Part shown: piece by piece, positions 3,712 through 61,810 of the stretch | Position numbering within the stretch: the first letter of the stretch is position 1 | Layout: the number at the start of each line of letters is the position of its first letter | Source of the DNA: an uncultured delta proteobacterium | Lineage (GTDB): Bacteria; Desulfobacterota; Desulfuromonadia; Geobacterales; DSM-12255 | Length of the DNA stretch: 64,000 nt | Direction: 5' to 3' | NCBI GenBank assembly: GCA_963787125.1 | Contig: CAWBBV010000007.1 | Location: 160,001 to 224,000 of the forward strand | Program-made: the position numbers and the translations under genes | The notes under the pieces: generated by a model | The model's database searches: none | What the model was told of the DNA's origin: nothing | Seen by the model: the letters and a program-made list of their open reading frames with translations, nothing else

Positions 3712-3767
3712 TCTCTACCACCCTTGTTCATTCACCGGAAAGCTTGCATTAAAAGTCAGGGAAGTTT

Positions 3768-4256: not shown

Positions 4257-4290
4257 GATCGAACTGCTGTGTGCAAAAACAGAACTGAAA

Positions 4291-46083: not shown

Positions 46084-46758
46084 GTGATGATGAGAATTTT
46101 GTCGGTTTTTGTGGTTTTTCTGGCGCTGACGAATTTTGCGGCGGCGGGCTCGGTCGATGATACGTTTAACCAGGTGAACAAGCATCTCTATGGCATCGGG
46201 GAAGATGTGCGCGAAGCGAGCCCTGCGCAGCAGGATGAACCCGTGCCTCCTCCTGAGCCGAAAACCAGGGTAAAGAAACGCTCTGCACCACCTGCTGAAG
46301 AGCAGGCACCGGAACAAGACTCTGGTTTTTCAGCCGGAAACGGTGTGGATGACGACCATTTTATTCAGAGTGATGACTATTTTGTGCAAAAGCACGATCT
46401 TAGCGGTCACGCCTGGATATGGGTGGAGCTTGCCAAGGTTGTTACCCCTCCCGGCGCTGATACCAAAGGGGAAGGGGAGTTTATGAAGGTGCGGGACGGC
46501 GAGAATTACTGGACAAAGTACTACTGGCGAACTCGCATCGCTGACCGGTCCGAACTGAAACTGGGTATGCATGTAATCGCGTTTAATGATAACCATCGCG
46601 GTGATATTTACCAGGCTCCGGAAAAAAAGGATCGTGCCAGAGGTGGTGGCTGGTTTTACGCTAAAATCACGGACATGTCTGATCTTTATAAAGGGTATGT
46701 AACTGTTTCAGGAAATTACAAGGTCGGCCTGGGGAATTTGCGGGTAATCAGGCGCTGA
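46084..46758 (+). CDS. Hypothetical exported protein
   Basis: Signal peptide, Pro-rich linker, aromatic C-terminal domain; followed by a terminator. Confidence 0.7.
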   Translation: MMMRILSVFVVFLALTNFAAAGSVDDTFNQVNKHLYGIGEDVREASPAQQDEPVPPPEPKTRVKKRSAPPAEEQAPEQDSGFSAGNGVDDDHFIQSDDYFVQKHDLSGHAWIWVELAKVVTPPGADTKGEGEFMKVRDGENYWTKYYWRTRIADRSELKLGMHVIAFNDNHRGDIYQAPEKKDRARGGGWFYAKITDMSDLYKGYVTVSGNYKVGLGNLRVIRR

Positions 46759-46790
46759 TAGTAGTTGGCTGAGCAGCTGCTGGTTGACCC

Positions 46791-46823
46791 CCCCGGGAAC
46801 TTGTTTTTCCCGGGGGATTTTTA
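46791..46823 (+). terminator. Intrinsic terminator
   Basis: ccccgggaa..ttcccgggg then attttt. Confidence 0.7.
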
Positions 46824-46947
46824 TGTACACTGGCATGTATCCTGGTTGTCAGGGTCGGGACTGTTTGCCAGGCGACAATACCAGTAAGTTTTTTCAGCTT
46901 GGATTTAATCGGAGCATAGGGTAGTTTAACGCAATCAGAAATATGGA

Positions 46948-47343
46948 GTGTTCATGAACCGTTTTATAAATGTAAACCTTGTGATTGCAGTACAGCTGAC
47001 TACCCCGGCTGAAAACCCTCTGGTTACCGATAGCAGCCGGATGATGGATGTCTGGTTTGGCGGTGCTACCGTCAGGAAGCAGCTTTTCAAGAAGGTGACC
47101 AAAGGTGAGCAGGAATTTATGACAGAGACTCTGAAGACCAGAGACTTCATCCAGTCCGGTAATCTCCTGATTGACCCGGCAGCAGTTCTTTTTGCAGAGA
47201 TGGAGAATCAATTCTTAGGGGGCTTCGTTACCATAGGTTATCAGGAAAACGGAAAACCGGTCGAACTTAAACTCGGCGGTAAGGCTTTCAATGAGCTCTG
47301 CGCCAGACTTTCCACTCTTCCAGGTGGCGGCGCTCTAGGATGA
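46948..47343 (+). CDS. Hypothetical protein
   Basis: 131-aa ORF with GGAG SD, co-directional with neighbours. Confidence 0.6.
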   Translation: MFMNRFINVNLVIAVQLTTPAENPLVTDSSRMMDVWFGGATVRKQLFKKVTKGEQEFMTETLKTRDFIQSGNLLIDPAAVLFAEMENQFLGGFVTIGYQENGKPVELKLGGKAFNELCARLSTLPGGGALG

Positions 47344-47391
47344 TTGAATTAATTTTGTTTGCTGCGATTTGTCAGTGACAGGGAGAAACAG

Positions 47392-48048
47392 GTGAAACCA
47401 GCAATGCTGACAAACGGGGAAACCCTCGCAATCGGTAAAATACTCTGCATTGGCAGAAACTACGTCGATCATATAAAAGAGCTGGGGAATGAAGTGTCCG
47501 GGACCCCGGTCATTTTCATGAAGCCGGCAAGTTCTGTAATAGACGATGGTGAAGAGGTCATAATCCCTTCATATTCTGCCAACTGCCATCATGAAGCCGA
47601 ACTTGCGCTGCTGGTCGGTAAAAAATGCAAAAACATTCCGGAAGCTGATGCGCTCTCATGTCTTAGCGGCTATGGAGTCGCCATTGACCTGACGCTAAGG
47701 GATGTTCAGGATGAGCTCAAGAAAAAAGGGCTGCCGTGGGATATTGCCAAAGGTTTTGACACGGCCTGTCCATTATCGGTTTTCGTGCCCGCTGCAAGGA
47801 TTCAGGACCCACAGAGCCTGACTATCACCATGACAGTCAACGGAGAGCTGCGGCAGAACGGCAGTACCGGGCTCATGATTCATACCGCGGCCAAAATCAT
47901 TAGCCACCTGTCGACAATTTTCACTCTTGAACCAGGGGATATAATACTGACAGGAACACCGGCTGGCGTAGGCCGAGTAGTGGCGGGTGACAGGTTATCT
48001 GCTGAAATAGGCGGGGTCGGCAAGGTAACGGTTTCTGTCGCTAATTAG
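47392..48048 (+). CDS. Fumarylacetoacetate hydrolase family protein
   Basis: CIGRNYVDH, HHEAEL, AKGFDT, TGTPAGVG. Confidence 0.9.
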   Translation: MKPAMLTNGETLAIGKILCIGRNYVDHIKELGNEVSGTPVIFMKPASSVIDDGEEVIIPSYSANCHHEAELALLVGKKCKNIPEADALSCLSGYGVAIDLTLRDVQDELKKKGLPWDIAKGFDTACPLSVFVPAARIQDPQSLTITMTVNGELRQNGSTGLMIHTAAKIISHLSTIFTLEPGDIILTGTPAGVGRVVAGDRLSAEIGGVGKVTVSVAN

Positions 48049-48057
48049 TCAACGTCC

Positions 48058-48777
48058 TTAGTAGTTTCCGCCGGTCAGCACTGCTGTCACACTCCCGACT
48101 GTTACCTTGGTTTGCGCTTTGACCGGGATCCTCCTGGCGTCATCAGTCAACCAGATATACGCCCCCCGCTTCCCTTCGAAAACACCTTCCGCTTTGACCA
48201 TAGGCTCCAAAACTATCGTGTCAAACTCCCCTGCAGGCACTTTTATCCGCTCTCTTCTCAGTACGCGGATTTCGATTCGGTGTAGCTGCTTACTGTCCAG
48301 AATATTAATATAGAGCGACTTTCCAGGCTCCAGAGTCTGGTAGCGGACATAATAGAAGCTTGAATAAATATCAAAGGTTTCTGTTTCAAGCGGGATGAAG
48401 AGATGCTCGCCGTTTTTCTTGTCAAAAAAATGGGCGGTCTTCTCCGTAGGGTTGAAGCTAATCTCCCGATTCCTGACACGAGACCCCTCCTTGAAAAGCA
48501 TCTTGAAGTTTCTGGTCGTTCCGGGGAACTCTCCCTGTTTTTCTAGAATGCTCTCAGTTCGGTCATCAACTGGAAAGAATGTGGAAAGCCAGTCGTTGGA
48601 TCTGGCGGTTGAGAGAATCTTCCGGACCTCACCTTCGTCAACTATTTCCTGCGTCGCAACGCCGACAGGAATACCTGTCCAACTGAGGCTGTAGATGAGT
48701 TTTTCAGGTATCTTAGGCTCGGCGAAGGAGGGGGTAGCTGCGAGAAGAATTATGAGGAGCGGGAAGATTAGTTTCAT
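48058..48777 (-). CDS. DUF3108-like exported protein
   Basis: Signal peptide, E.L.Y..SW.G, VPAGEF, WLTDD.RRIPV. Confidence 0.75.
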   Translation of the reverse strand: MKLIFPLLIILLAATPSFAEPKIPEKLIYSLSWTGIPVGVATQEIVDEGEVRKILSTARSNDWLSTFFPVDDRTESILEKQGEFPGTTRNFKMLFKEGSRVRNREISFNPTEKTAHFFDKKNGEHLFIPLETETFDIYSSFYYVRYQTLEPGKSLYINILDSKQLHRIEIRVLRRERIKVPAGEFDTIVLEPMVKAEGVFEGKRGAYIWLTDDARRIPVKAQTKVTVGSVTAVLTGGNY

Positions 48778-48795
48778 ATAGTCAGACAATAGTAG

Positions 48796-49003
48796 TCAGG
48801 AGTCAGTCTTCAGCTAGGAGACTGTCGGAATTAGAATAAATCTGCTGCAAATCCGTCTGAACGGTCCATATTTATCCGCTTTCTTGGTCAATAGGACGAC
48901 TATTGACCTGCAAAATCGACTAAATCTGTCCTCGTCCAGCCGAATTTTCGCTTTTATTTCCTAAGTCCGACAGACTCCTGAAAAGCTTTATTCTGACTCC
49001 TGA
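48796..49003. mobile_element. MITE-like element (48816-48979) nested inside an 11-bp inverted repeat
   Basis: Inner IRs aggagactgtcggaattag / ctaagtccgacagactcct; central hairpin ggtcaatag-gacga-ctattgacc; outer tcaggagtcag / ctgactcctga. Confidence 0.7.
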
Positions 49004-49010
49004 ATGCCGG

Positions 49011-51296
49011 CTACTGTTTTGCCTCCTGCTTTTTCTCCTGAGTCGAATATTCACAACCTTCTTTCGGACATTTCAAGAACTCACCTGTCCGTTTGTAAAC
49101 CTTTTTCACCAGGAGTGGAAAGCCGCATTGCGGGCAGGGCTGTTCGATCGGCAGATCCCAGAGAGCAAACTTGCACTGCGGATAGCGGTTGCAGGAGTAG
49201 AACATTTTGCCGTAGCGGGATTTCTTTTCGATCAGCTCGCCTTCCTTGCATTCAGGGCAGACTACGCCTGTCCCTTTTGGCTTGTTAAGCGGTTGAATGT
49301 TCTTGCAGGCAGGATAGCCGGAACATGCGAGGTATTTGCCGTAGCGACCATCTTTTATCAACATCGGTTGGTCGCACTTTTCACATTTCTCTTCCGACAG
49401 TACCGGTTCGGCAACTTCGCTGCCATCCTGCACAAGCGGCCGGGTGTAGCGACAGCCTTCCCGATAACCACTACAGGCAATGAATTTGCCCCGCTTACCG
49501 AGTTTGACGGCAAGTTGTTGCCCACACTCGGGACAGTTTTCGGCCAGTGCCTCGGTTGTCAGCTCTTCTTTGCTGACTTCCCCTTCCTTTTGCTTCAAGA
49601 GTGCCGCAAAAGGGGTCCAGAACTCCTCTACCAACGGTTTCCACTGCTTCTCCCCCCGGGAGATCTGATCAAGCTCTTCTTCGAGTCCGGCAGTGAAGTT
49701 GTAATCAACGTATCTGGTAAAGTGAGTTGTCAAAAGATCACTCACAATCATACCGATATCTTCCGGGAAGAAACGTTTCTTGTCGAGACGGCAGTATTTG
49801 CGTTCAACCAGGGTGTTCATGGTGCTGGCATAGGTTGACGGTCTGCCGATGCCGTACTCTTCGAGAGTTTTGACCAGTGTTGCCTCAGTATAGCGTGGCG
49901 GTGGCTGAGTGAAATGCTGTTCCGGCAGAAGTTCCTGCAGCGGCAACTGATCCCCCTCTGTCAGCGGCGGCAAGGTGCCTTCACGTTCTTCTGTTTCATC
50001 ATCAATCCCCTCAGTGTAGAGCTTCATAAAGCCGGCAAAGCGAACAACGGTGCCAGCGGCACGGAAGGTGTATCCTTTGCCCGCAGAGATATCAACCGAA
50101 GTCTGATCCAGCAGCGCCTCTGCCATTTGACAGGCAACGGTTCTCTTCCAGATAAGATCATAAAGCTTGAACAGGTCAGGGGAGAGATATTTTTTCAATT
50201 CAAGCGGAGTCTTGGAAATGTAGGTCGGCCTGACCGCTTCGTGAGCCTCCTGGGCATTTTTGGATTTATTTTTGTAAAATCGCGGCTTTGCCAAAGCATA
50301 ATCTTTGCCGTAAAGAGAGGTTATCACCTCTTTCGCCTCATCCAGCGCTTGATTGGAGAGGGCAACACTGTCAGTACGCATATAGGTGATAAGACCGACA
50401 GTCCCTTCGCCGACATCAATCCCCTCGTAAAGTTTCTGGGCAGTTGACATGGTTTTCTTAGCAGAATAGCCGAGCTTTCTGGAAGCCTCCTGCTGGAGCG
50501 TCGAGGTAGTGAATGGCGGGGAGGGCTGCCGCTTGCGCTCGCTCTTTGTTACTTTATCGACCCTGTAAGCTGCTGGTGCAAGGGTTGCAACAAGCCCGTC
50601 AGCAGCCGCTTTGTCCGGAATGTCAAACTTGGCCAGCTTCTTTCCCGCCGCTTCGATGAGATTTGCCTTGAACGGCTGTTCGCCTTTACCGGAAAGTTTC
50701 GCTCCGATGGTCCAATACTCCTGTTCGATGAACGCCAGAATCTCCTTTTCCCGTTCACAGACAAGCCGCAAAGCCACCGACTGCACCCGCCCGGCAGAAA
50801 GCCCGTAACGGATTTTTTTCCAGAGAAAGGGAGATAGATTAAAACCTACCAGATAGTCCAGAACTGACCTGGCTTGTTGGGCATCAACCAGATCGATGGC
50901 AATGTCGCGCGGGTTTTCTACCGCTTCTATGATCGCCCCTTTGGTGATTTCGTGGAATACTACCCGCTTGATCGGAATGGTGCTCTTTTTGCCGGTCAGT
51001 CCCAGCGCTGCCAGAAGATGCCAGGAAATCGCCTCACCCTCCCGGTCGGGGTCAGTTGCAAGGAGAAGAGTGTCGGCGTCTTTCAGCGCTTTTTTGATGG
51101 CGTCGAGATGTTTTTTGCTTTCCGGCAGGACAGCATATTTCGGTTCAAATCCGTTTTCGATATCGACCGAACCCTGCTTGCTCGGCAGTGCCCGAACATG
51201 CCCGAAAGAAGCGAGGACCTGATAACCCGGCCCCAGGAATTTCTCAATGGTTTTCGCCTTTGCCGGCGACTCGACGATGACAAGTTTGTTTGACAT
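49011..51296 (-). CDS. topA: DNA topoisomerase I
   Basis: VESPAKAKTI, DPDREGE, ITYMRTDS, GIGRPSTY, C4 zinc ribbons. Confidence 0.97.
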   Translation of the reverse strand: MSNKLVIVESPAKAKTIEKFLGPGYQVLASFGHVRALPSKQGSVDIENGFEPKYAVLPESKKHLDAIKKALKDADTLLLATDPDREGEAISWHLLAALGLTGKKSTIPIKRVVFHEITKGAIIEAVENPRDIAIDLVDAQQARSVLDYLVGFNLSPFLWKKIRYGLSAGRVQSVALRLVCEREKEILAFIEQEYWTIGAKLSGKGEQPFKANLIEAAGKKLAKFDIPDKAAADGLVATLAPAAYRVDKVTKSERKRQPSPPFTTSTLQQEASRKLGYSAKKTMSTAQKLYEGIDVGEGTVGLITYMRTDSVALSNQALDEAKEVITSLYGKDYALAKPRFYKNKSKNAQEAHEAVRPTYISKTPLELKKYLSPDLFKLYDLIWKRTVACQMAEALLDQTSVDISAGKGYTFRAAGTVVRFAGFMKLYTEGIDDETEEREGTLPPLTEGDQLPLQELLPEQHFTQPPPRYTEATLVKTLEEYGIGRPSTYASTMNTLVERKYCRLDKKRFFPEDIGMIVSDLLTTHFTRYVDYNFTAGLEEELDQISRGEKQWKPLVEEFWTPFAALLKQKEGEVSKEELTTEALAENCPECGQQLAVKLGKRGKFIACSGYREGCRYTRPLVQDGSEVAEPVLSEEKCEKCDQPMLIKDGRYGKYLACSGYPACKNIQPLNKPKGTGVVCPECKEGELIEKKSRYGKMFYSCNRYPQCKFALWDLPIEQPCPQCGFPLLVKKVYKRTGEFLKCPKEGCEYSTQEKKQEAKQ

Positions 51297-51333
51297 ATGT
51301 ACCTGTTATTATAGTTTTATTTTAATAATGCGT

Positions 51334-52419
51334 TCATGATAGTGAAAACAACTTCCCCGGAATCTGCATAACAGCGCCTTGCAGCTCAAGGCGAAGGAGC
51401 ATAACGGAAACAGCTGCGACTGTCAATCCGCTCCGGACGGTCAGCTCATCGATATGCAGAGGTTTATCGGCTAGTAATCGACACATCTGCTCTTCATCAG
51501 CACTGAAACTGAACCCCTGATTTTGAGCCCACAGGGGAAGATTAACGCTCTCCGGCGGGAGTTCTCCCATAATATCGGCGACGGTTTCAACAAGTTTCGC
51601 CCCCTGTTTTATGAGGCTATTCGTGCCACGGCTTGCCCGGAAGTTAATGTTCCCGGGGACAGCAAAGACCTCCCGTCCCTGTTCCAGGGCGAATCGGGCA
51701 GTTATGAGCGAACCGCTCTTTTCTGCGGCTTCAACAACAAGCACTCCTCTCGACATGCCGCTGATAATTCTGTTGCGCCGGGGAAAGTTGCTGGCATCCG
51801 GCTGGGTGCCGGGGGGGAATTCGCTGACAATGGCAGCTTTTTCCTCCATCTGCCGGTAAAGCTGCCGGTTCTCGGCAGGATAAACGAGATCAATGCCGCA
51901 GCCAAGCACCCCGACAGTGGCGCCGGACACCTGCAGCGCGCCTTTATGTGCGGCAGCATCAACCCCCATTGCCAGGCCTGAAACAATTGTTACCCCTTGT
52001 TCGGCCAGCTCACGAGCAAATTTTGCGGTAACAGACAGGCCGTAATCCGATGCCCGGCGGGAGCCGACAATAGCAATCGCTGTTTTTGCAGCCGGGAGCT
52101 TGCCTTTCAGGTAAAGGTATGGAGGCGGATCGGAAATCTCTTTTAGCAGCACGGGGTAGTCGTCATCAAGCAGCGTCACCAGTTTTGCACCGCTTTTGTT
52201 AAGAGCAGCGGCGGCGAGCTCTGCTTCCCGGCTGTAATCATGATTGATTAGCGAGAGTGCGGCCGAGGAATTTACCCCTTTAATACGGGATATCTCGTCA
52301 AGCGATGCCGCCAAAGCTTTGGCCGGTGAACCGAAATGTTCAATCAGACGTCGATAGGTTACATTCCCCACCAGCGGCACTGAGCGCAGCGCAAACCAGT
52401 AAAAAGGATCATCAGTCAT
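51334..52419 (-). CDS. dprA: DNA processing protein
   Basis: IVGSR, SGLAMGVD, FPRRNRIISG, SGSLITA. Confidence 0.95.
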   Translation of the reverse strand: MTDDPFYWFALRSVPLVGNVTYRRLIEHFGSPAKALAASLDEISRIKGVNSSAALSLINHDYSREAELAAAALNKSGAKLVTLLDDDYPVLLKEISDPPPYLYLKGKLPAAKTAIAIVGSRRASDYGLSVTAKFARELAEQGVTIVSGLAMGVDAAAHKGALQVSGATVGVLGCGIDLVYPAENRQLYRQMEEKAAIVSEFPPGTQPDASNFPRRNRIISGMSRGVLVVEAAEKSGSLITARFALEQGREVFAVPGNINFRASRGTNSLIKQGAKLVETVADIMGELPPESVNLPLWAQNQGFSFSADEEQMCRLLADKPLHIDELTVRSGLTVAAVSVMLLRLELQGAVMQIPGKLFSLS

Positions 52420-52440
52420 TTATCGTTATAGCCAAAAATA

Positions 52441-53514
52441 TCAGCGCCCCTTCTTCATCTCCAGCCTGTCGCCCTTATAGATGGTATCAATACTTTTTAT
52501 TACAAGGGCAGTTGACGTATTTTCGGCTGTAGCAACTATAAGCAGTGCCCCGATAACATCAACAGGCAGGTCGTAATCTGATTTGGAAAAGTAATCTATC
52601 TCTACCTTCACCTTACGCACAACATAGAGAATGTTGCCGGGCTGCACACCCTGGCGGCTCCCAAGGTCGATATAGGCAATATCACCGGCAGCTACAGCCT
52701 GAATGCCGGTTCTGGTTTCCACTATATATCCCGAAAGATCAACTTCAGGAGCTTTAAGCACGATTTCCTTTTTCCCGCTCTTATATGGCAAAAGGACAGC
52801 TCCTGGCTCAATCTCCAGGAAAGTCTCGGTGATAAGTCCCTTGGAGCTTTTGTCAGCCATTTCGGTCAGCTGGATAACCCCTAAAGGGATTGCTTTGTAG
52901 CCCAGGATCTGATTTGTTACCGGATGGCTTATCTGTGAATGCCGCTTGTAGACATTGAAGCGATCACCGGCCTTAACCCCCTGCCTGCGGCCCATGTCAG
53001 TGTAGATAACATCATCAACGGCAAAGATCTGCCGGTTGTGCTGACCGGCTATAACAATGCCGACAGGTTTGAAGTCATCACCGGCTATAAAACCTTCACC
53101 GCCATTGAGCGTGAAGTAGCGTTCTTCTGTTGTCTGTTCCGGCGCTGCAGCAAATTGTGGAGATGCACCCACCGGAGCAGCCTTTGGTGCCCCGGAGCTT
53201 GCTGCCGCTTCTGCTTGAGGCTGAGCAGCCGTCTCTTTTCTCACGGTCTCAATCTCGATTCTGTCAGGGTAAACTTTCAGTTTCTGACCTGGAAAGATAA
53301 AATGGGGATTCAAAATCTTGTTGGGATTACGAGCCCAGAGGTCAGGCCAGTAGTGCGGATCTTTCATGAAGCGTTCTGAAAGCCCCCAAAGAGTATCCCC
53401 TTTTTTGACGATATAAACTGTCGGCTCACCATTCTGGCCGGCATATCCGGCTCCGCAGACAAAAAGTGTTGAAACTAGAGCAGCCGCAGCTGCCAGGCAT
53501 CTGAAGAATCTCAT
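52441..53514 (-). CDS. LysM peptidoglycan-binding protein
   Basis: YIVKKGDTLWGLS..WPDLW..NPHFIFPGQ; typical dprA neighbour. Confidence 0.9.
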   Translation of the reverse strand: MRFFRCLAAAAALVSTLFVCGAGYAGQNGEPTVYIVKKGDTLWGLSERFMKDPHYWPDLWARNPNKILNPHFIFPGQKLKVYPDRIEIETVRKETAAQPQAEAAASSGAPKAAPVGASPQFAAAPEQTTEERYFTLNGGEGFIAGDDFKPVGIVIAGQHNRQIFAVDDVIYTDMGRRQGVKAGDRFNVYKRHSQISHPVTNQILGYKAIPLGVIQLTEMADKSSKGLITETFLEIEPGAVLLPYKSGKKEIVLKAPEVDLSGYIVETRTGIQAVAAGDIAYIDLGSRQGVQPGNILYVVRKVKVEIDYFSKSDYDLPVDVIGALLIVATAENTSTALVIKSIDTIYKGDRLEMKKGR

Positions 53515-53533
53515 ATACAACCTCGCTAACTCT

Positions 53534-54253
53534 CTATTTCCCGTCAAGCTGTTGTTTAGCTCTAACTGCGGCATCACTTCCAGGATATTGCTCCATAACC
53601 TGCCGCAAGACGGCAGCCCCTTTTGCTCCGGAATCGAGACGATACCACGCCATGCCGATACGCAGCAGTGCCTCAGAACTTCTCTTTTGGGGAGGATTCA
53701 TCTCAAGAACCCTGGTGAAAGAGTCTATTGCCTCTTTATAGCGACCCTCACTGAAATGGCACTCGCCCAACCAGTAGCGGGCATTTGCCGCATATTCACT
53801 CTCCGGATATGCGGCAATAAAAGAGTTGAATGCCTCGGCAGCTTCCCTGTAGTTGTTAGCGCTAAAAAGGCCAAAAGCCTTCATGTAGGCGGCCTGGACA
53901 GACTCTTCACGCCCGGCGGCAATGCTCTCCTGATTTACAAGCTCGATAGTAGCTGACTGCCGGGTTGACGCTTCAAGCTGGGCGAGCCTGTTTGAGAGAA
54001 TCTTCACCCGCCCCTGCAGTGCGTCATATTGCAACTGCAGTTCCTTTTCAGCTATGACCCGCTTGAGCGACTGCTCCTTAAGTTCATGAATCTGAACGTT
54101 AGCGGCAGTAAGTTCAGCCTTGGCGCTATTGTGAGCCTGCATAACCTGCTCCAGCCGCCCCTCCAGACTGCTCTGCCGCTGGACAATCAGATCATTGCCG
54201 GCACATCCGGTTAAACCGGTAAAGAGAAACAGAAAGGGAGCGATTCGCCGCAC
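53534..54253 (-). CDS. cpoB: Tol-Pal TPR lipoprotein
   Basis: Lipobox LTGC, coiled coil, YPES.YA.NA.YWLGE. Confidence 0.82.
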   Translation of the reverse strand: MRRIAPFLFLFTGLTGCAGNDLIVQRQSSLEGRLEQVMQAHNSAKAELTAANVQIHELKEQSLKRVIAEKELQLQYDALQGRVKILSNRLAQLEASTRQSATIELVNQESIAAGREESVQAAYMKAFGLFSANNYREAAEAFNSFIAAYPESEYAANARYWLGECHFSEGRYKEAIDSFTRVLEMNPPQKRSSEALLRIGMAWYRLDSGAKGAAVLRQVMEQYPGSDAAVRAKQQLDGK

Positions 54254-54333
54254 AGGGGTCTCCTTGAAGTAACTGCTGGACTTTTGCAAAATCATCTAAA
54301 TCAAGGACAATTAAAGCCTTTCACCCGCTTTTG

Positions 54334-55065
54334 TCAAGGAGAAAGCCGCAGGAAAGCAAGCGATTTGAGCGTTCTGCCGGTATTTGCAAAAATGAAGGCA
54401 TCAAGGAAACGGTTCACTGCAATGATTTCATCAGCATCGAAATGAACATGCCCGAATCTGCCGGTTTTCATCGCTTCAAGCAGGAGCGAGATACTTGTCC
54501 CCCCGAGTCTTTCCCCCCCTCGGCAGCAGCGTTGACAGTGTATCCCGTGACTACCACCATTTTGCCAGAAGCCGCCTGTAACTGCCAGCGTCACGCCACA
54601 GTCTGCGCAGCTTTCCAGTGGCGGTCGGTACCCCAGGATGTTGAGCAGATTGATTTCGAAGAAATGCCGGTCGGAAGGGACAACAGGGTGGAGGTCAAGC
54701 TGTTCAAGGTAGCTGCTTAAAAGTCTGAAGACTCTTTTGTTGGCAAGATTTTCCGGTGTTATAGCTGAAACCAGTTCAGCGGCATAGCCGGCATGAGCAA
54801 TCCGCGCAAAGTCCTGGCGAATGCCGGGATAGATCGTCACAGCCTCGGCATCCCTGATAGTGACAAGGCCTTCGGCAGGGATGAAGTTGACAGCAAGACG
54901 GGCAAAGAGTTCAAAAACGCCGCCGAAGCGTTTAACGCTGCTCCTGGCGCCGCGGGCGATACCGCTGATCCTGCCATGCTCTTTCGTATAAAGATGAATA
55001 ATCTTGTCGGTCTCGCGATAATCCATCATGCCGACAACGAGCGCTTCATCGGTAAGGCTTTTCAT
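54334..55065 (-). CDS. recO: DNA repair protein RecO
   Basis: DYRETDKII, ARGARSS.KRF, LGYRP..C..C zinc motif. Confidence 0.92.
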   Translation of the reverse strand: MKSLTDEALVVGMMDYRETDKIIHLYTKEHGRISGIARGARSSVKRFGGVFELFARLAVNFIPAEGLVTIRDAEAVTIYPGIRQDFARIAHAGYAAELVSAITPENLANKRVFRLLSSYLEQLDLHPVVPSDRHFFEINLLNILGYRPPLESCADCGVTLAVTGGFWQNGGSHGIHCQRCCRGGERLGGTSISLLLEAMKTGRFGHVHFDADEIIAVNRFLDAFIFANTGRTLKSLAFLRLSP

Positions 55066-55592
55066 GCTGTAATTGCCGTGTTCAGCGGAGCTTTTCTTCT
55101 GAGCTGGATAAAGTCGGCAGGTGGATCAAAAGAGATGCGCTCCCTTGCAATCTCCTCGAAATCTTCCGCATCGATACAAGGGAAAAAAGAGTCTCCCTCA
55201 AGTTCAAGATCGACAACTGTCAGGTAAATTTTTTCCGCAAAAGGCAGCGCCCGCGTATAAACCTCGCCGCCGCCACAGATAAAGACCTCGCCATCCGCCT
55301 CTGCCAGCCGCAGTGCAGCTGCAACAGAAGCGGTTACCAGCGTTCCTGCCGGAGCATAATCGGGCTGTCTGCTTACCACGATGGTCTTTCGGCCCGGCAG
55401 CGGCCTGCCGATACTCTCGAACGTTTTTCGCCCCATAATAACGGTATGCCCAAAAGTAAGCTCCCGAAACCTGCTCATATCCGCCGGGATACTCCAGGGG
55501 ATAGCACCATCTCTGCCGATGACCCGATTTCTGCTCATTGCCGCAATAATTGAAACAGTCACAATCCCGTTCCCGCCCTTGTTTTCAGCCAT
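55062..55592 (-). CDS. folA: Dihydrofolate reductase
   Basis: NRVIG..IPW..P.D, MGRKTFESIGRPLPGR, GGGEVY, GDSFFP; start reassigned because the ORF-track extension runs through repeat R1. Confidence 0.93.
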   Translation of the reverse strand: MAENKGGNGIVTVSIIAAMSRNRVIGRDGAIPWSIPADMSRFRELTFGHTVIMGRKTFESIGRPLPGRKTIVVSRQPDYAPAGTLVTASVAAALRLAEADGEVFICGGGEVYTRALPFAEKIYLTVVDLELEGDSFFPCIDAEDFEEIARERISFDPPADFIQLRRKAPLNTAITA

Positions 55593-55656
55593 TCCTGTCC
55601 AGCCCTTAAAAACCTTTACAATTCCCAGTTCCCGCCTTTCTTTACCTCTACCTGTA

Positions 55657-55715
55657 CCTGATTTTCCTTCCCAGCCAGCGCAAAGGTTTGGTGATCCGCC
55701 AGGAGAGAGAGGAAT
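55657..55715 (-). repeat. Direct repeat R1 (glycosyltransferase-tail repeat)
   Basis: Core gccagcgcaaaggtttggtgatccgcc at 55674-55700; minus strand reads SSLSWRITKPLRWLGRKIRYR*. Confidence 0.95.
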
Positions 55716-55826
55716 CAACTACATTACTGATGACTCAATAGTCTTTCGTACCCGAATCAATAAAACTTTATCAAATAAATCCGACATGCTATACAGTAAT
55801 ATAAAAGTAACCTTGGAGTAATAAAT

Positions 55827-56114
55827 ATGCCACAGGTCACGCCTTTCGATAAAACCATTATCAATTTCATGTCCAGCCATGGAGTATCTCAAATTGCCGT
55901 CTTCGGTTCGTATGCACGCGGTGAAGCTCGTCCCGACAGCGATCTAGACCTATTAGTCCGTTTTTCGGAACAAAAAAGCCTCCTCGGAGTGATCCGCCTG
56001 GAGCGCGAGTTATCGGAACTGCTTGGAGTCAAAATTGACCTGTTAACCGAACAGGCTATCAGCCCATACCTTATTGACCGGATCAGGAAGGAACTCAAGG
56101 TAATTGCCTTATGA
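55827..56114 (+). CDS. Minimal nucleotidyltransferase antitoxin (MNT), copy 1
   Basis: FGSYARGE..DSDLD. Confidence 0.9.
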   Translation: MPQVTPFDKTIINFMSSHGVSQIAVFGSYARGEARPDSDLDLLVRFSEQKSLLGVIRLERELSELLGVKIDLLTEQAISPYLIDRIRKELKVIAL

Positions 56115-56440
56115 TCCGCGACGACAGGGTCTATCTGTCACACATCATTGATGCTCTTCAACAGATTAGCGAATATACTAAAAACCTCGATTACGATGGT
56201 TTTAACGCAGCCCGCATTATTCAGGATGCTGTTATACGGCAATTCGAGATCATTGGCGAAGCTACAAAAAATCTTTCCGAAGAGTTTCGAATGAAACAGC
56301 CGGATATTCCGTGGAAAGACCTGGCAGGGTTCCGTGACAAGCTGATTCATCAATATTTCGGCGTCGACATCTCCATTGTATGGCGCTCAGTAGTCGATGA
56401 TATGCCTGTTTTACTGAAAGAATTCGGGGAGATTAAATAA
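56111..56440 (+). CDS. HEPN/DUF86 RNase toxin (HepT-like), copy 1
   Basis: EIIGEA, RDKLIHQY (RX4HXY). Confidence 0.9.
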   Translation: MIRDDRVYLSHIIDALQQISEYTKNLDYDGFNAARIIQDAVIRQFEIIGEATKNLSEEFRMKQPDIPWKDLAGFRDKLIHQYFGVDISIVWRSVVDDMPVLLKEFGEIK

Positions 56441-56518
56441 ACCCTGAGACTGCGTTCAGACACCCTCTCGACATGGCCCGATTCACCCTTCACCCTTCAC
56501 GTCTCACCAGATTCCCCC

Positions 56519-56560
56519 GCCAGCGCAAAGGTTTGGTGATCCGCCCGGAGAGGGAGGAAT
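56519..56560 (-). repeat. Direct repeat R2
   Basis: Same 27-bp core at 56519-56545; minus strand reads KPLHSSLSGRITKPLRW. Confidence 0.95.
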
Positions 56561-56689
56561 GTAGGGGCTTCATGTAAGGACAGATCTTATTAATAATAAA
56601 TTGTCCCCGAAACTCCCTAACAGAAAAACCCACTCTGGATTCTCCTGCAGCTGAGACTATCCGCCCATGGTTCCTGCATTTCCTCAGGA

Positions 56690-57004
56690 TCATGCAGCCT
56701 TGAGCAGTGGCACTTCGTCCAACTCTTTCAAATGATCCCTTTCCACTTTCCAAAGATCAACCGCCAACTGTGCATTCATCCAGAACTGGGCACTATTGCC
56801 AAAAAGCCGTGACAAGCGAAGCGCCATAAGCGGTGTTAATGCACGCCTCCCGTTCAGAAGTTCATTTACACTCTGTCGTGACACCTTGAGAGCAGCAGCC
56901 AGAGAGGAGACTGTGAGAGAATAGTCCGGCATAAACTCTTCGCGAAGAAGAGACCCTGGGTGGGTTGGTGCAATCATACGACTCTTTAAATTAGTTATGG
57001 ACAT
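56690..57004 (-). CDS. higA: HigA antitoxin
   Basis: PTHPGSLLREEF, ALRLSRLFG..AQFWMNAQ. Confidence 0.92.
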   Translation of the reverse strand: MSITNLKSRMIAPTHPGSLLREEFMPDYSLTVSSLAAALKVSRQSVNELLNGRRALTPLMALRLSRLFGNSAQFWMNAQLAVDLWKVERDHLKELDEVPLLKAA

Positions 57005-57017
57005 GGTAACCCTCTTT

Positions 57018-57299
57018 TTAGTGGTAGTCGGTAATTTCAACGTCATAGGCATCGCCGTCTTTAAAGATGAAACATATACGCCACTGCGCATTGATTGAAA
57101 TGGAGTATTGACCAGACCTGTCATCTATTAAAGCATGGAGACGATTACTTGGAGGGACTTTTAAATCTTCAATTGTGACGGCATAAGTCAGAAATTCAAG
57201 CCGCCGTATTGCTCGCTGGACAAGGTTTGGTGGCAGGTTACGCGAGCGTCCGGTCAGATAAAGAAACTCGGTTTGCTTGTCTGCAAAGGTCCTGATCAT
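57018..57299 (-). CDS. higB: HigB/RelE-family toxin
   Basis: MIRTFADK, PPSNRLH.L, SISIN.QWRICF, DYH. Confidence 0.92.
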   Translation of the reverse strand: MIRTFADKQTEFLYLTGRSRNLPPNLVQRAIRRLEFLTYAVTIEDLKVPPSNRLHALIDDRSGQYSISINAQWRICFIFKDGDAYDVEITDYH

Positions 57300-57305
57300 G
57301 GAGGA

Positions 57306-57334
57306 AGTGTAATATGTAACGTGACAAGTGTCAA
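57306..57334 (-). promoter_or_regulatory. Sigma70-type promoter of higBA
   Basis: TTGACA-17 nt-TACACT, 6 nt upstream of the higB ATG. Confidence 0.75.
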
Positions 57335-57388
57335 TAGCTTGCCATCCTTCCCCGTACCTACCGTAAATTCCATATTCTTCGCGCCTTT

Positions 57389-57516
57389 CTTCTACCTTTC
57401 CTAGTCCCCCGCACCTCAAATCTCAAACTTGATCCCCGATCCCAATTCCCAGATCACGACTTGACTCAAAACAGTTCCCAGTTCCCGCCTTTGCTTCACA
57501 ACAGTTCCCTGATCCC
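57389..57516. repeat. 128-bp spacer block S, copy 1
   Basis: Near-identical to 60451-60578. Confidence 0.9.
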
Positions 57517-57637
57517 AGATCCCGCCTTTCAGCCTTTGCGTATCTACAGTCTAAGGCCTTTTCACCTGTTTGCTTCCGCAGTCAATCTGCTGTAAAGTAT
57601 TGGCATTATCAAAATATTATCCCTTCAAGGTATAGAG

Positions 57638-57910
57638 GTGGACATGAAATCTGCAAACGCTACAACACTTGATCTCTCCAGCCTCCCGGAACAGGCACGA
57701 CAGGAAGTCACCGACTTCTACAATTTCCTGAAAACAAAATATCGCCAACGTACCGCACCGCTAAAAACATCTATTAAGAATAAATCATCAGCAACAACCT
57801 TGCTGACCGATTCAAAATTTATTGGTATGTGGAGCGACCGTCCGGAAATGAACGACCCTACAAAATGGGTAAGTGAATTAAGACAAAACTCTTGGAGTCG
57901 CCATGAGTAG
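57638..57910 (+). CDS. DUF2281-like antitoxin
   Basis: LPEQARQEV.DF..FL; FIGMWSDR..WV.ELR; overlaps the PIN gene. Confidence 0.78.
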   Translation: MDMKSANATTLDLSSLPEQARQEVTDFYNFLKTKYRQRTAPLKTSIKNKSSATTLLTDSKFIGMWSDRPEMNDPTKWVSELRQNSWSRHE

Positions 57911-58289
57911 CAACCAACTCCTGGGCACCGACATACTTGTTAATATTGCCCGAGGCAATCTTGCTGCCATAGCACACTTAAACAACCTCTTATCAGATGG
58001 TAGAGTTCATGTCAGCGCTGTGACTGAAATGGAACTTGTCGTCGGTTGTCGTAACAAATCAGAACTACGTGAACTCTCCCGGCTTCTCAAGCAGATGACT
58101 ATAATCCCGATCACCCCTGAAATCACAACAACTGCGATAAAACTGTTACATACATATCGCTTGAGCCACGGACTCCTTATTGCTGATGCGATTATTGCTG
58201 CCACTGCCATAGTCAGCAAACGCATCCTCTTAAGCGGAAATGCAAAACATTTCTCAATGATCGAGGCATTACAATTCAAGGCAAATTAA
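57903..58289 (+). CDS. vapC: PIN-domain (VapC) toxin, first catalytic Asp replaced by Gly
   Basis: LLGTDIL (canonical DT), TEME, ADAIIAATA, N.KHF. Confidence 0.82.
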   Translation: MSSNQLLGTDILVNIARGNLAAIAHLNNLLSDGRVHVSAVTEMELVVGCRNKSELRELSRLLKQMTIIPITPEITTTAIKLLHTYRLSHGLLIADAIIAATAIVSKRILLSGNAKHFSMIEALQFKAN

Positions 58290-58408
58290 CTTACCTTCTC
58301 CGATTCCCGCCTCTACTTTCTCGCCTCTGCCTTTGCGTCTCTACAGTTCCCAATTCCCGCTTTTGCTTCACAACAGTTCCCTGACCCCGCCTTTCTTTAT
58401 CTTTACCT

Positions 58409-58603
58409 CTATCTGTACCTGATTTTTCTTCCCAGCCAGCGCAAAGGTTTGGTGATCCGCCAGGGTAGGGAGGAATGAAGGGCTTTAAGTCGAGCAGTTT
58501 TCGTCTTGAGCTCAACCAGCAGTTTATCCCGGCTCTCTGCCTCGGCCAGGTTTGCAGAGCTTATCTTAAGCAGGTACTGAAAGGTCTCTTCAGTTGAGGC
58601 CAT
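58409..58603 (-). pseudogene. Orphan coiled-coil plus WRITKPLR tail, containing repeat R3 (core 58435-58461)
   Basis: ..DKLLVELKTKTARLKALHSSLPWRITKPLRWLGRKIRYR* parallels the GT2 C-terminus. Confidence 0.7.
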
Positions 58604-58626
58604 GAGGTTTGGTGAGCTGACCTGCC

Positions 58627-59136
58627 TTAAGGTTTGACCAGTTGCGCCAGATCCTTTAGCAGCAGAAAAAGGTGGTATGGATCTGTAGGACTGGGCTCAA
58701 AGCCCCATCTCAGATACCAATTCCGGGCTGCATCATCCTTCGCATGGATGAGCATTGCTCGAATCCCGGCAATATCAGCCGCCTGCAAGGTTCGGAGCAT
58801 GGCATCCTTCAACAGGGCACGACCCAGACCGCCCCCATGATGATTCCGATCAACCGCAAGACGAGCCAGAATCATTACCGGTACCGGATGCCTGGCCAAC
58901 CCCTTGACGACACGTCCTGCTGCCGTCGCCGGTTCGACGCTGCCCACAACCAGAGTGTAAAAACCCACTACATTGCCGCTCTGGCCGCAAACGTAGGTTT
59001 GCGAGCTGTTGGCTTTCTGACTGGTCAGGGCAAAACGCAGTAAAAACTGGTTCAGAGCCGGCTGACCGCAATCAAACGAATTGACATTGTCGGCTACTTC
59101 AAGTTTGCGGACAGTATCATAAGAGAATAGGCTCAC
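58627..59136 (-). CDS. GNAT acetyltransferase toxin (TacT/AtaT-like)
   Basis: FDCG..LN.FL, VPVMILARLAVD..G.G.G, AKDD.A..WY..GF. Confidence 0.9.
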   Translation of the reverse strand: MSLFSYDTVRKLEVADNVNSFDCGQPALNQFLLRFALTSQKANSSQTYVCGQSGNVVGFYTLVVGSVEPATAAGRVVKGLARHPVPVMILARLAVDRNHHGGGLGRALLKDAMLRTLQAADIAGIRAMLIHAKDDAARNWYLRWGFEPSPTDPYHLFLLLKDLAQLVKP

Positions 59137-59411
59137 CCCAGAACCCCAGGTTCAGTGAGCAAGCGTTTCAGGCGGGGATATGATTGTACCGGGCGGTCGA
59201 GAGCCTGCTGGAATGCCTGCCACTCGGCATCATTCAGCTCAAAGCGGCGGCGTTCGGCAAGAGTTTGGTTAGCAGCACTTATCCCGGCATCCAAAAGAAA
59301 TTCGCTGACGCTCTTGTGGCAAGATCGTGCCGCCTCCTGCAGCAACTGCTTGACAGACAGGTTGGCACGGACATCAATCCGCTCTGTTTTTGAAATGGTC
59401 AAAGTAGGCAT
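59133..59411 (-). CDS. DUF1778 RHH antitoxin (TacA-like)
   Basis: KTERIDVR, AA....SVSEF, F..ALD.P. Confidence 0.88.
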   Translation of the reverse strand: MPTLTISKTERIDVRANLSVKQLLQEAARSCHKSVSEFLLDAGISAANQTLAERRRFELNDAEWQAFQQALDRPVQSYPRLKRLLTEPGVLG

Positions 59412-59615
59412 TGGGTGCTCCTTTAATATCATATGTGTCAACTATATCGTACGGACAATGTACTGACAATAAAATTATTTTGACGGGAGCCTCTCCCCAT
59501 AAACTCCCCAGCTACTCAACCATTCAGCTCTTTCCTTTGCGTCTCTACAGTTCCCAGTTCCCGCCTCTGCCTTAAAACAGTTCCCTGACCCCGCCTTTCT
59601 TTACCTTTACCTCTA

Positions 59616-59674
59616 CCTGATTTTCCTTCCCAGCCAGCGCAAAGGTTTGGTGATCCGCCAGGAGAGGGAGGAAT
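59616..59674 (-). repeat. Direct repeat R4
   Basis: Core at 59633-59659. Confidence 0.95.
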
Positions 59675-59786
59675 CAACGACATTACTGATGACATAATAG
59701 TCTTTCGTACCCGAATCAATAAAACTTTATCAAATAAATCCGACATGCTATACAGTAATATAAAAGTAACCTTGGAGTAATTAAAT

Positions 59787-60074
59787 ATGCCACAGGTCAC
59801 GCCTTTCGATAAAACCATTATCAATTTCATGTCCAGCCATGGAGTATCTCAAATTGCCGTCTTCGGTTCGTATGCACGCGGTGAAGCTCGTCCCGACAGC
59901 GATCTAGACCTATTAGTCCGTTTTTCGGAACAAAAAAGCCTCCTCGGAGTGATCCGCCTCGAGCGCGAGTTATCGGAACTGCTTGGAGTCAAAATTGACC
60001 TGTTAACCGAACAGGCTATCAGCCCATACCTTATTGACCGGATCAGGAAGGAACTCAAGGTAATTGCCTTATGA
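59787..60074 (+). CDS. MNT antitoxin, copy 2
   Basis: Protein identical to copy 1. Confidence 0.9.
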   Translation: MPQVTPFDKTIINFMSSHGVSQIAVFGSYARGEARPDSDLDLLVRFSEQKSLLGVIRLERELSELLGVKIDLLTEQAISPYLIDRIRKELKVIAL

Positions 60075-60400
60075 TCCGCGACGACAGGGTCTATCTGTCA
60101 CACATCATTGATGCTCTTCGACAGATTAGCGAATATACTAAAAACCTCGATTACGATGGTTTTAACGCAGCCCGCATTATTCAGGATGCTGTTATACGGC
60201 AATTCGAGATCATTGGCGAAGCTACAAAAAATCTTTCCGAAGAGTTTCGAATGAAACAGCCGGATATTCCGTGGAAAGACTTGGCAGGGTTCCGTGACAA
60301 GCTGATTCATCAATATTTCGGCGTCGACATCTCCATTGTATGGCGCTCAGTAGTCGATGATGTGCCTGTTTTACTGAAAGAATTCGGGGAGATTAAATAA
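60071..60400 (+). CDS. HEPN/DUF86 toxin, copy 2
   Basis: Differs from copy 1 by Q>R and M>V. Confidence 0.9.
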   Translation: MIRDDRVYLSHIIDALRQISEYTKNLDYDGFNAARIIQDAVIRQFEIIGEATKNLSEEFRMKQPDIPWKDLAGFRDKLIHQYFGVDISIVWRSVVDDVPVLLKEFGEIK

Positions 60401-60450
60401 ACCCTGAGACTGCGTTCAGACACCCTCTCGACAAGACCCGATTCACCCTT

Positions 60451-60578
60451 CTTCTACCTTTCCTAGTCCCCCGCACCTCAAATCTCAAACTTGATCCCCG
60501 ATCCCAATTCCCAGATCACGACTTGCCTTAAAACAGTTCCCAGTTCCCGCCTTTGCTTCACAACAGCTCCCTGACCCC
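60451..60578. repeat. Spacer block S, copy 2
   Basis: Near-identical to 57389-57516. Confidence 0.9.
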
Positions 60579-60604
60579 GCCTTTCTTTACCTTTACCTCT
60601 ACCT

Positions 60605-61810
60605 CTACCTGATTTTCCTTCCCAGCCAGCGCAAAGGTTTGGTGATCCGCCAGGAGAGGGAGGATTCAAGGGCATCTACTCGTAGTTGTAAATATTGAAT
60701 CATTTCGTCTTTTTCCGATTTGGATAAAGAATTGACTGATTGAGCAGCTAACATGTCAGTACTTTTTGTTGTTACAATCAATCTTGATCTATCACGACAT
60801 ACTTTTGAGCCTTGCCAAAAAGTAAAAATTTGCCACTTTATATAATCATATCTACTGCGCAATTTGATTATTGCCAAAAGCTTACCGAATTGATAATGAG
60901 CCTCTGTTGCCTTTAATGAACCTTCAATTTCGCGATGCAAAAACAACAACTCCATGTATCTGTTTTGATATGAGTCTATTATTGAGCGTGCATCTGCGAT
61001 CCAAGCATTATTAAAATCAGGGGCATAATCAGGTTTCGAGTTAAAAAATTCTCTATAAGTGCCTAAAACGACTTCAGACGCACCGAAGCCCCCGTGCAAT
61101 TTTTTTAGATATCTCCATGTAAGTCTGAACGTGGGGAGGTAATGATAATAAGAAAGTCTTTCATCGTACCAGAGTCGCCAGCCAAAACATCTAAGCGCAA
61201 AACAAATTTCGGAATCTTCCCCTGAACTCAGGTTCGTGCCATGTCTACCAGAAAGGGTAAAGGTAAAACCATTATTGATGATTTCTTCCCACGCTGACTT
61301 TCTGATGCTCAGCCCAGCTCCCCACAGGTACCCTCTCGAGTCTGCTACATATCCGGTAGTTTCCGATTGAGGGCCAACAGCGTAGCACCCTTTGAATTGT
61401 TCAAACCATGGCGGGGCAACCGTCTCAAAGCTTGGCAATCCTAAACCACCACATGCTCCCACGTCAGGGTGTGCAGACATAATTTTATAAACGATATCAA
61501 TCCATTCAGGACAAATCCAGTTGTCATCGTCAATAAAGCAAATGTATTCGTATTGAGATTCAGCAATACCTCTAAGTCTGGCATTTTTAAGGCCTAACTC
61601 GTGTTCGGTTATGATCTTGGTGACTTGTTTGAGATGATAAGAGAAGAGATTATCTGCGATTTGAGAAGTTTCGTCAGTAGAGGCATTATCTACTAGTATT
61701 ACTTCAAACTGAATGTAATTAGGAATTATAAGATTATTGACATGATATATTGTTTGAGGCAATTTTTCTGCGCTATTATGACAGCAAATGATTAGGCTGA
61801 CGCCGTTCAT
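60605..61810 (-). CDS. Family 2 glycosyltransferase with short coiled-coil and SWRITKPLR tail (contains repeat R5, core 60625-60651)
   Basis: SLIICCHN, VDNASTD, FIDDD, GED; AT-rich body switching to the GC-rich repeat at its 3' end. Confidence 0.9.
   Translation of the reverse strand: MNGVSLIICCHNSAEKLPQTIYHVNNLIIPNYIQFEVILVDNASTDETSQIADNLFSYHLKQVTKIITEHELGLKNARLRGIAESQYEYICFIDDDNWICPEWIDIVYKIMSAHPDVGACGGLGLPSFETVAPPWFEQFKGCYAVGPQSETTGYVADSRGYLWGAGLSIRKSAWEEIINNGFTFTLSGRHGTNLSSGEDSEICFALRCFGWRLWYDERLSYYHYLPTFRLTWRYLKKLHGGFGASEVVLGTYREFFNSKPDYAPDFNNAWIADARSIIDSYQNRYMELLFLHREIEGSLKATEAHYQFGKLLAIIKLRSRYDYIKWQIFTFWQGSKVCRDRSRLIVTTKSTDMLAAQSVNSLSKSEKDEMIQYLQLRVDALESSLSWRITKPLRWLGRKIR

Follow-up and report, generated by a model that had tools for sequence, protein, structure and literature searches.

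A toxin–antitoxin island at the end of a glycosyltransferase gene in an uncultured Geobacterales bacterium, possibly remodelled by host recombination

We present an in-silico analysis of a toxin–antitoxin (TA) island in a 64,000-nucleotide stretch from an uncultured Geobacterales bacterium, hereafter the window (G000:C7:160001-224000; contig C7 is 605 kb long and genome G000 4.2 Mb). Five cassettes, predicted from their protein families to be TA pairs of type II/VII, stand in a row at 55.6-60.7 kb of the window between folA and a low-GC glycan cluster, and the island occupies a conserved insertion hot spot directly downstream of the glycosyltransferase (GT) gene that ends the cluster. The repeats termed R that punctuate the island copy the 3' end of this gene, which belongs to the GT2 family. 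An earlier interpretation made from the letters alone (the sequence-only reading) had described two duplicated units here, A and B, differing by whole TA cassettes; the derivation of R from the GT2 gene end, and the place of the units within an array of five cassettes at a hot spot that relatives share, are new relative to it. We give about even chances to the explanation that the island has been remodelled by host recombination within its punctuating repeats together with joins at microhomology.

Results

The two duplicated units

Comparison of 55500-58620 with 59440-60800 by blastn bore out the two units and their whole-cassette differences. Three collinear blocks were obtained: 55618-56491 in A against 59577-60451 in B (98.06% identity; 16 mismatches and 1 gap in 875), 57384-57516 against 60446-60578 (96.2%) and 58343-58483 against 60533-60673 (92.2%). 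Unit A spans 55618-58483 and unit B 59577-60673, and A equals B plus two extra whole modules, namely a segment with R2 and higBA and a VapB-like/PIN pair. The breakpoints are clean, none being ragged inside a gene: all are intergenic and lie 51-124 nt from the nearest end of an open reading frame (ORF).

Two junction types distinguish A from B. The first is microhomology: the 898-bp extra segment with R2 and higBA does sit between the first and second blocks of A, as had been claimed, and the few shared bases reported at this junction are an exact 3 nt within an imperfect 8-mer that matches at 6/8 positions, while in B the two blocks share 6 nt (60446-60451). The second is a pair of direct repeats flanking the PIN module, previously given as 42 nt with two mismatches and extendable to 46 nt (57471-57516 and 58343-58388; 93.5% identical, with 3 mismatches, 2 of them within those first 42 nt); the second and third blocks share the same 46 nt in B. 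Collapsing these repeats indeed yields the layout of B, for the single B copy agrees with the left A copy over its left side and with the right A copy over its right side, as expected from a crossover inside the repeat in either direction.

The four coding differences between the MNT/HepT copies listed in the sequence-only reading (56000, 56160, 56321 and 56402) are exactly correct; 56000 and 56321 are synonymous, and 56160 and 56402 produce Q17R and M98V in HepT. The remaining 13 of the 17 differences in the first block fall in non-coding flanks, and the divergence of the two MNT/HepT units amounts to 0.65% in coding sequence and about 5% in the flanks.

Deletions from an ancestor resembling A would account for both differences between A and B just as well; one genome does not decide between gain and loss at either of them, and a direction can only be inferred. 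The MNT/HepT homologue in the related genome G012 has two GAAGGGT heptamers in its 3' flank, as does copy A, whereas copy B has one, which mildly favours the B junction as the derived state. Of the broader proposal that TA modules move as discrete, self-promoted cassettes by two routes, the discreteness and the two junction types held, self-promotion was partly backed, and movement can be read from the sequence comparison just indirectly.

The repeat R and its tail

The R core (52 nt) occurs in five copies, all direct, at 55670-55721, 56515-56566, 58431-58482, 59629-59680 and 60621-60672 (R1 to R5), and a 27-nt stretch is invariant in all five; the repeats are well beyond chance (E 1e-14 to 1e-75). 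The core constitutes the last ~50 nt of the adjacent GT2 gene, encoding the C-terminus SSLSWRITKPLRW; on the minus strand each of the five cores reads in frame as SSL(S/P)(W/G)RITKPLRW, which is the C-terminus of the glycosyltransferase. R5, with its tail at 60533-60620 and the S block at 60446-60532 (together 60446-60672, minus strand), is the true 3' end of the GT2 gene, whose protein ends in ...ESSLSWRITKPLRWLGRKIR*.

The other copies are remnants of varied extent, all on the minus strand. R1 (55593-55721) comprises a purine-rich tail (55593-55669) and a core that reads as the in-frame remnant VVDSSLSWRITKPLRWLGRKIRYR*, and R4 (59541-59680) has its tail at 59541-59628; both are 20-codon remnants with stop codons just upstream and no gene-like sequence before them. 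R2 (56515-56566) is core only (44-52 nt) and continues into a short GAAGGGT-heptamer tail in place of the long one. R3 (58343-58603) is made up of a tail (58343-58430, including the right 46-nt repeat), the core and a remnant ORF (58409-58603) for a 64-aa coiled coil, the upstream part of which matches the GT C-terminus at 50% protein identity; core plus tail reach ~92% DNA identity to R5, and identity steps up at the core edge. A further tail-like spacer (57384-57516), consisting of the S' block at 57384-57470 and the left 46-nt repeat, is without an R core.

In R1, R3, R4 and R5 the core is followed by a common tail of ~100 nt, purine-rich on the gene sense strand, 89-96% identical and built of 30-nt sub-units, beyond which the copies diverge. 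The repeats keep one polarity irrespective of cassette orientation. Because the R1 tail abuts the folA start, the simplest ancestral state is GT - R - tail - folA.

Within the genome the R core is confined to this locus, and the R copies of G000 are 91-98% identical mutually versus 77-90% to R of other genomes. The tail sub-unit motif forms a single cluster in G000, at the array, and 10 of the 11 matches in the cluster are the array copies. The tail motif CAGTTCCCGCCTTT has 12 matches in G000 against 6 for the control and is essentially limited to the array; in the same-genus genome G001 it is a common repeat of intergenic regions, with 33 matches against 2 for the reversed control, in inverted tandem sets between housekeeping genes. 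Homologues of Y1 transposases are present, none of them nearby, and an origin of R from genome-wide repetitive extragenic palindromes (REP) was ruled out by the core being unique to the locus.

Some side observations concern the same sequences. Element pairs (GGTAAAGG)n / (CCTTTACC)n occur as hairpins elsewhere in the genome (a stretch of G000:C23, L022 12259-12315) and in relatives; 60579-60621 of the window also holds a (GGTAAAGG)n / (CCTTTACC)n element, of which the array has the pyrimidine arm alone. In the relative G016 an R5 query gave 23 matches, mostly on the tail part, several of them as adjacent plus/minus pairs. No Pfam family (E<=0.01) extends beyond residue ~253 of the 401-aa GT2 protein, and the C-terminal motif is hence uncovered.

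The hot spot in related genomes

Eight related loci were inspected by eye, and cassettes were counted between the R-bearing gene and the next core gene. In the family of the window, the motif-bearing gene is the last gene of its glycan cluster. The site behind it is empty in G003, G014 and G015 (0 cassettes; cysD or an ABC-transporter gene follows directly), holds an AAA_14/DUF4143 ATPase alone in G019 and one Phd/ParE pair in G010, and carries 5 cassettes in G000 and at least 7 each in G016 and G012. In G012 the last 36 nt of contig C225 are identical to the reverse complement of the C59 end, a low-complexity overlap that calls for caution. Arrays comparable to that of G000 follow the equivalent gene in three other genera, with 1 cassette in one of them and at least 7 in each of the other two.

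Partial copies of the gene end recur in two of these arrays. In G012 a PIN pair lies between the end of the resident gene and a 38-nt core copy, which is 95% identical where the paralogous motif in the gene before it reaches just 63%; in G016 a 32-nt core copy (94%) is found 1.9 kb beyond the gene end on its downstream side, along with another at 75%. The glycan clusters of relatives often have two or three consecutive genes with the motif at their end.

A pattern combining the degenerate core with the SLS prefix was found in 5 of 239 genomes of the order (including G000), all in the window's own family. A less specific core pattern gave 17 loci in the species collection, spread over diverse phyla with one match each and no arrays; the C-terminal motif is accordingly a feature of proteins in general and not a mobile sequence. 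Encoded by one degenerate DNA pattern, SWRITKPLRW occurs in glycan-related loci of very diverse bacteria, among them Variovorax, Cyanobium, Synechococcus, Comamonas, Acidobacteriota and others. Metagenome scans returned no match to the exact 24-nt core and one to the degenerate core, a near-copy of G010.

Two further loci were recorded beside these. At 8631-8682 of G003:C13 (L018), from a same-genus genome, the R-like motif does not share the reading frame of the 383-aa ORF before it and is preceded closely by stop codons; it is either a remnant or an assembly frameshift. At G016:C39 (L043) 3745-4479 and 6486-6785 / 8350-8795, a TA island shows internal duplications that are 100% identical and contains the 3' remnant of a DUF4143 ATPase gene twice, a second case of gene-end remnants in such an array.

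Spacers

The spacers between cassettes are composed of heptamer-like repeats, and their plus strand has a C+T content of 65-78% where the region as a whole has 53%. Low-complexity spacers divide the cassettes in four of four arrays, and the purine-rich strand is the sense strand of the R gene, however the cassettes are oriented. G000 has 27 purine-rich tracts of at least 100 nt, four of them within this 5-kb array, and none was found at the empty sites of G003 and G015 (both sequences were read, and G003 was also scanned for tracts). The spacers of G012 contain direct-repeat families of 5-12 copies, and the short modules GAAAGGCGG and CGTGAAGGGTGAAG are common to spacers of three genera, with AAAGGCGGGAAC and GTGAAGGGTGAAG likewise shared across genera. 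Copy number varies between near-identical sequences, a metagenome contig otherwise identical to G010 differing by one 13-nt spacer unit, and G016 has internal duplications of at least 300 nt at 100% identity.

As a side observation, the spacers at 55593-55669, 56441-56514, 58290-58430 and 60401-60620 have 36-42% C and 8-15% G on the plus strand. Such C-rich, G-poor tracts resemble Rho-utilisation sites, and it may be speculated that they could end transcripts antisense to the glycan operon. In G010 (L019) a second purine-rich tract lies at 7613-7759, after cysD and before a small 117-aa ORF, and could mark one more small insertion that has a spacer of this type.

The cassettes and their neighbours

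The five cassettes, each with adjacent small toxin and antitoxin genes of families recognised by Pfam or NCBIfam, run in the order MNT/HepT copy A, HigBA, VapB-like/PIN, TacA/GNAT and MNT/HepT copy B. MNT/HepT copy A (55827-56440, plus strand) consists of a MntA-like gene at 55827-56114 and hepT at 56111-56440, assigned by Pfam (NTP_transf_2 2.9e-18; HepT-like 1.4e-27) with the NCBIfam MntA and HepT models below cut-off; copy B (59787-60400, plus strand) has an identical MNT protein and differs in HepT by the two substitutions given above. PADLOC matches the MNT protein alone, to the candidate system PDC-S09. The higBA pair (56690-57299, minus strand; higB 57299-57018, higA 57004-56690) is supported by Pfam HigB-like (1.5e-15) and, for HigA, by HTH_3 and by TIGR02607 above its cut-off (99.9 bits). 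The VapB-like/PIN module (57638-58289, plus strand) was recognised with Pfam and NCBIfam; its PIN match is 3.5e-14, and the DUF2281 match of the VapB-like protein (1e-4) is below the Pfam cut-off. The TacA module with a TacT-like GNAT toxin (58627-59441, minus strand; Pfam TacA1 8.5e-24, Acetyltransf_7 1e-9) lies between units A and B and had gone unnamed in the sequence-only reading.

Each module comprises a promoter region, two genes and 40-120 nt of flank. The MNT/HepT homologue of G012, 76% identical, shares the promoter region, both genes and ~40 nt of the 3' flank; a PIN cassette from a sediment metagenome, 93-95% identical, ends at positions corresponding to 57526 and 58290, with other pyrimidine-rich flanks beyond; and TacAT and PIN homologues occur in other TA islands of G016 and G020. 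Sigma-70-like sites matching at 10/12 positions stand directly upstream of tacA (59469-59441) and higB (57334-57306) on the minus strand; such sites are not above chance overall (5 found, 7.8 expected from shuffles). The promoter-like -10 hexamer of higB ends 6 nt before its ATG (57334-57297, minus strand), so close that it implies either a leaderless mRNA or a spurious site.

A plasmid search with the whole array returned 6 weak matches, all in TA coding parts. Among Logan contigs from 4 of 12 sequencing runs, a 130-nt contig, present in two runs from a single study, links 57514 and 58430 through 5 intervening letters, and a 256-nt contig suggests a join of 58493 to 60626; with 6 mismatches in 58-67 nt, both were set aside as too short and diverged to represent junction variants of the strain. 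No Rfam family matched in a cmscan of 55000-61000 (E up to 1).

On its core-genome side the array borders on folA (dihydrofolate reductase, 55062-55592, minus strand; Pfam DHFR_1 8.3e-54), with a start at ATG 55592 or GTG 55562, and recO is among the further core genes on this side; which gene lies upstream of folA varies among same-genus genomes. On the other side the GT2 gene (60605-61810, minus strand; Pfam Glycos_transf_2 4.6e-27) closes a glycan cluster of Wzt type and low GC, which sits at a synteny breakpoint and further out contains sulfotransferases, radical-SAM enzymes, a methyltransferase and the Wzt ABC-transporter protein. GC content falls from 50-54% in the core through 43-53% in the array to 35-40% in the glycan cluster.

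Known site types and recombinases

No inverted repeats were found in the array region, and all six R/tail units, folded as single-stranded DNA, formed hairpins no better than those of shuffles (z +0.07 to +1.30); spacers that are 65-78% pyrimidine on one strand permit no self-pairing. R or the spacers as attC sites of an integron were rejected on these inverted-repeat and folding tests. Between 55500 and 60800 no dif-like 11-6-11 palindrome (at least 8/11) lies at a boundary, the six imperfect ones all being within genes, and Xer/dif modules were dismissed on this absence, although the dif site proper to the host had not been located.

In the whole genome, 8 matches to tyrosine recombinases and 1 to serine recombinases were found, none of them on contig C7. 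No recombinase or transposase family was detected among 18 neighbouring ORFs. These were the large ORFs listed in 46084-55065 and, from the following 16 kb, 10 of the 13 ORFs that reach 150 aa, the other three being two overlapping antisense ORFs and a last ORF cut by the end of the stretch. Nor, in the few genomes sampled, does a recombinase stand beside the R gene (G003, G010, G012, G014, G015, G016 and G019). The TIGR02249 cut-off is exceeded by two integron-integrase-like genes (340.9 and 337.8 bits), which occupy open frames of 467-470 aa and lie at G000:C23:106715-107650 (L022 6715-7650) and G000:C4:161732-162667 (L023), not on C7. Each is preceded by ~20-nt iterons (L022 5626-5816, L023 10640-10772), and no obvious cassette array was seen beside them. 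A diversity-generating retroelement, with its paired repeats at the 3' end of a gene, was dropped as a candidate: no reverse-transcriptase family appeared among 31 neighbouring and array ORFs, the models not having been searched genome-wide, and the differences between R copies, read by eye and untallied, showed no adenine-specific pattern.

Discussion

Heterogeneous junctions, of which the array has at least three kinds (R core, tail repeat and microhomology), the lack of a known site type or recombinase, the local derivation of the repeats and the instability of the spacers together favour host recombination and slippage at a conserved hot spot. The two MNT/HepT units are diverged copies of one segment; the PIN-module difference would reflect a crossover inside the 46-nt punctuating repeat, and the R2/higBA difference a join at 3-6 nt of microhomology. 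The general recombination of the host and replication slippage, rather than an element-encoded enzyme, would be the most likely agent. The sequences themselves show the anatomy, what the repeats are, that the breakpoints are intergenic, that relatives share the hot spot, and that attC-like, dif-like and nearby recombinase features are lacking; we infer the enzymology of these events, as we do their direction of gain or loss.

Several observations weigh against this explanation. Core-limited copies of the gene end bracket TA cassettes in three genera (44-52, 38 and 32 nt), and in G012 and G016 they are at 94-95% identity where neighbouring paralogous motifs are at 63-75%; to judge from sequence, such copies look like an att core or a long target duplication and not like random homologous exchange. 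At R3 identity jumps at the core edge, from 50% (protein, upstream) to ~92% (DNA), and all four arrays examined keep one repeat polarity whatever the orientation of the cassettes. Homologous recombination on 32-50 nt is inefficient. Cassette movement is itself deduced from sequence comparison, no rearrangement having been caught in progress.

Some of these points lend plausibility to site-specific accretion, which we regard as possible, if rather improbable: the R core would be an att site in the 3' end of the GT gene, used for serial insertion by a recombinase encoded elsewhere or since lost, and the cassettes would be integrase-less units of the kind of cis-mobilizable elements (CIMEs), or an analogue of integron cassettes without hairpins. 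The invariant 27 nt in five direct copies, the constant polarity, the R or tail copy that follows each cassette when the array is read in the direction of the gene, the core-limited duplicates of the gene end in three genera and the sharp step at R3 would all suit such a process, and the 8 tyrosine-recombinase matches, two of them integron-integrase-like, could supply the enzyme. Against it, however, neither the 605-kb contig nor the immediate neighbourhood of the R gene at the 8 loci examined encodes a recombinase, the breakpoints are heterogeneous, and the PIN cassette is bracketed by tail sequence instead of R core. The MNT/HepT copies, moreover, differ in the sequence between R core and cassette, so they would not be two insertions of one element by one mechanism, and since the R copies are nearer to the resident gene than to R of other genomes, local duplication is indicated over import with an element. 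A more specific form of this idea strikes us as doubtful: that a Geobacter-related family has a hairpin-less, integron-like system in which TA cassettes with polar purine-rich spacers are serially inserted, by a trans-acting recombinase, at a site within the last 11-12 codons (SLSWRxTxPLR) of the gene that ends the O-antigen-type cluster, the core being duplicated each time.

It is less probable again that the glycan cluster was replaced repeatedly from related strains, each R copy being what remains of a former terminal gene, and that gene conversion later homogenised the copies over the motif, with TA cassettes accumulating at the junction. The low GC of the cluster, its position at a synteny breakpoint, the consecutive motif-ending genes of relatives, the coincidence of the near-identical core edges with the conserved protein motif, and the 64 codons of diverged C-terminal coiled coil retained by R3 would fit this history. 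Old paralogs, on the other hand, would not be expected to share a non-coding tail of ~100 nt at 89-96%, as R1, R3, R4 and R5 do, and R1 and R4 are devoid of gene-like sequence upstream.

The integron, dif and artefact readings are unlikely. That the duplication is an assembly artefact seems very improbable: none of 12 listed sequencing runs contains the strain (the best has 0.13 of the sampled words), which leaves some room for it, but the copies differ at 17 positions, have distinct flanks on both sides and lie inside a 605-kb contig, and similar arrays with internal repeats occur in independent assemblies. Scarcely credible is an integron cassette array without a nearby integrase (CALIN), for which the two integrase-like proteins and the frequency of TA cassettes in chromosomal integrons, as set out in PMC13108822 and PMC4889954, could be cited, since nothing here pairs or folds as attC does, the integrases are on other contigs and the cassettes face both ways.

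Clustering of TA pairs and their carriage by mobile elements are well known, and the gain and loss of solitary chromosomal pairs is less well documented. The present locus is an unusually clean natural record in that two diverged copies of a unit differ by one whole cassette at each of two junction types, and the array site is empty, singly or heavily occupied across related genera. Were the gene-end repeat truly a recombination site, a new cassette-capture system would be added beside integrons and dif modules, and addiction or defence modules would be physically tied to a variable surface-glycan locus. If host recombination alone suffices, the island is a good example of repeat-mediated turnover and involves no new principle. 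Narrow literature searches (Geobacter repeats and toxins; TA integration hot spots) gave no description of such an array among the papers listed.

Comparison with known systems

The closest parallel in layout is the tandem accretion of integrative elements and CIMEs at the 3' end of a target gene, of the ICESt1 type, as presented in PMC5704250. As in that case, several units stand in tandem beside an intact gene, and all five R copies encode the GT C-terminus in frame. Unlike it, no genome examined has an integrase-bearing partner element at the site, the array units measure just 0.8-1.0 kb with one TA pair each, and some boundaries fall in tail repeats or microhomology instead of the core.

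Chromosomal integrons and CALINs, as described in PMC4889954 and PMC13108822, likewise consist of small self-contained cassettes, many of them TA pairs, with a repeat of constant polarity in between; the array repeat differs in having no attC-like hairpin and in stemming from the end of a protein-coding gene, no IntI is adjacent, and the cassettes run both ways. The dif (pdif) modules of Acinetobacter plasmids (PMC6449649 and PMC13141974) are similar in being discrete TA modules with short bounding sites that are shuffled between contexts. The array, by contrast, has no 11-6-11 XerC/D-type site at its boundaries, is chromosomal, and has direct and not alternating repeats.

A last comparison is with rearrangements that REP-like intergenic repeats mediate, as in REP-mediated tandem duplication. 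For Geobacter genomes, multicopy heptanucleotide repeats of unknown function are reported in PMC2700814. Unlike REP-like repeats, those of the array are concentrated in one place (10 sub-units), fused to a gene-end remnant, of one polarity and without hairpin pairs; like them and the Geobacter heptanucleotides, they have heptamer-like tail units, a motif dispersed intergenically in the same-genus genome G001, and a copy number that varies between near-identical sequences.

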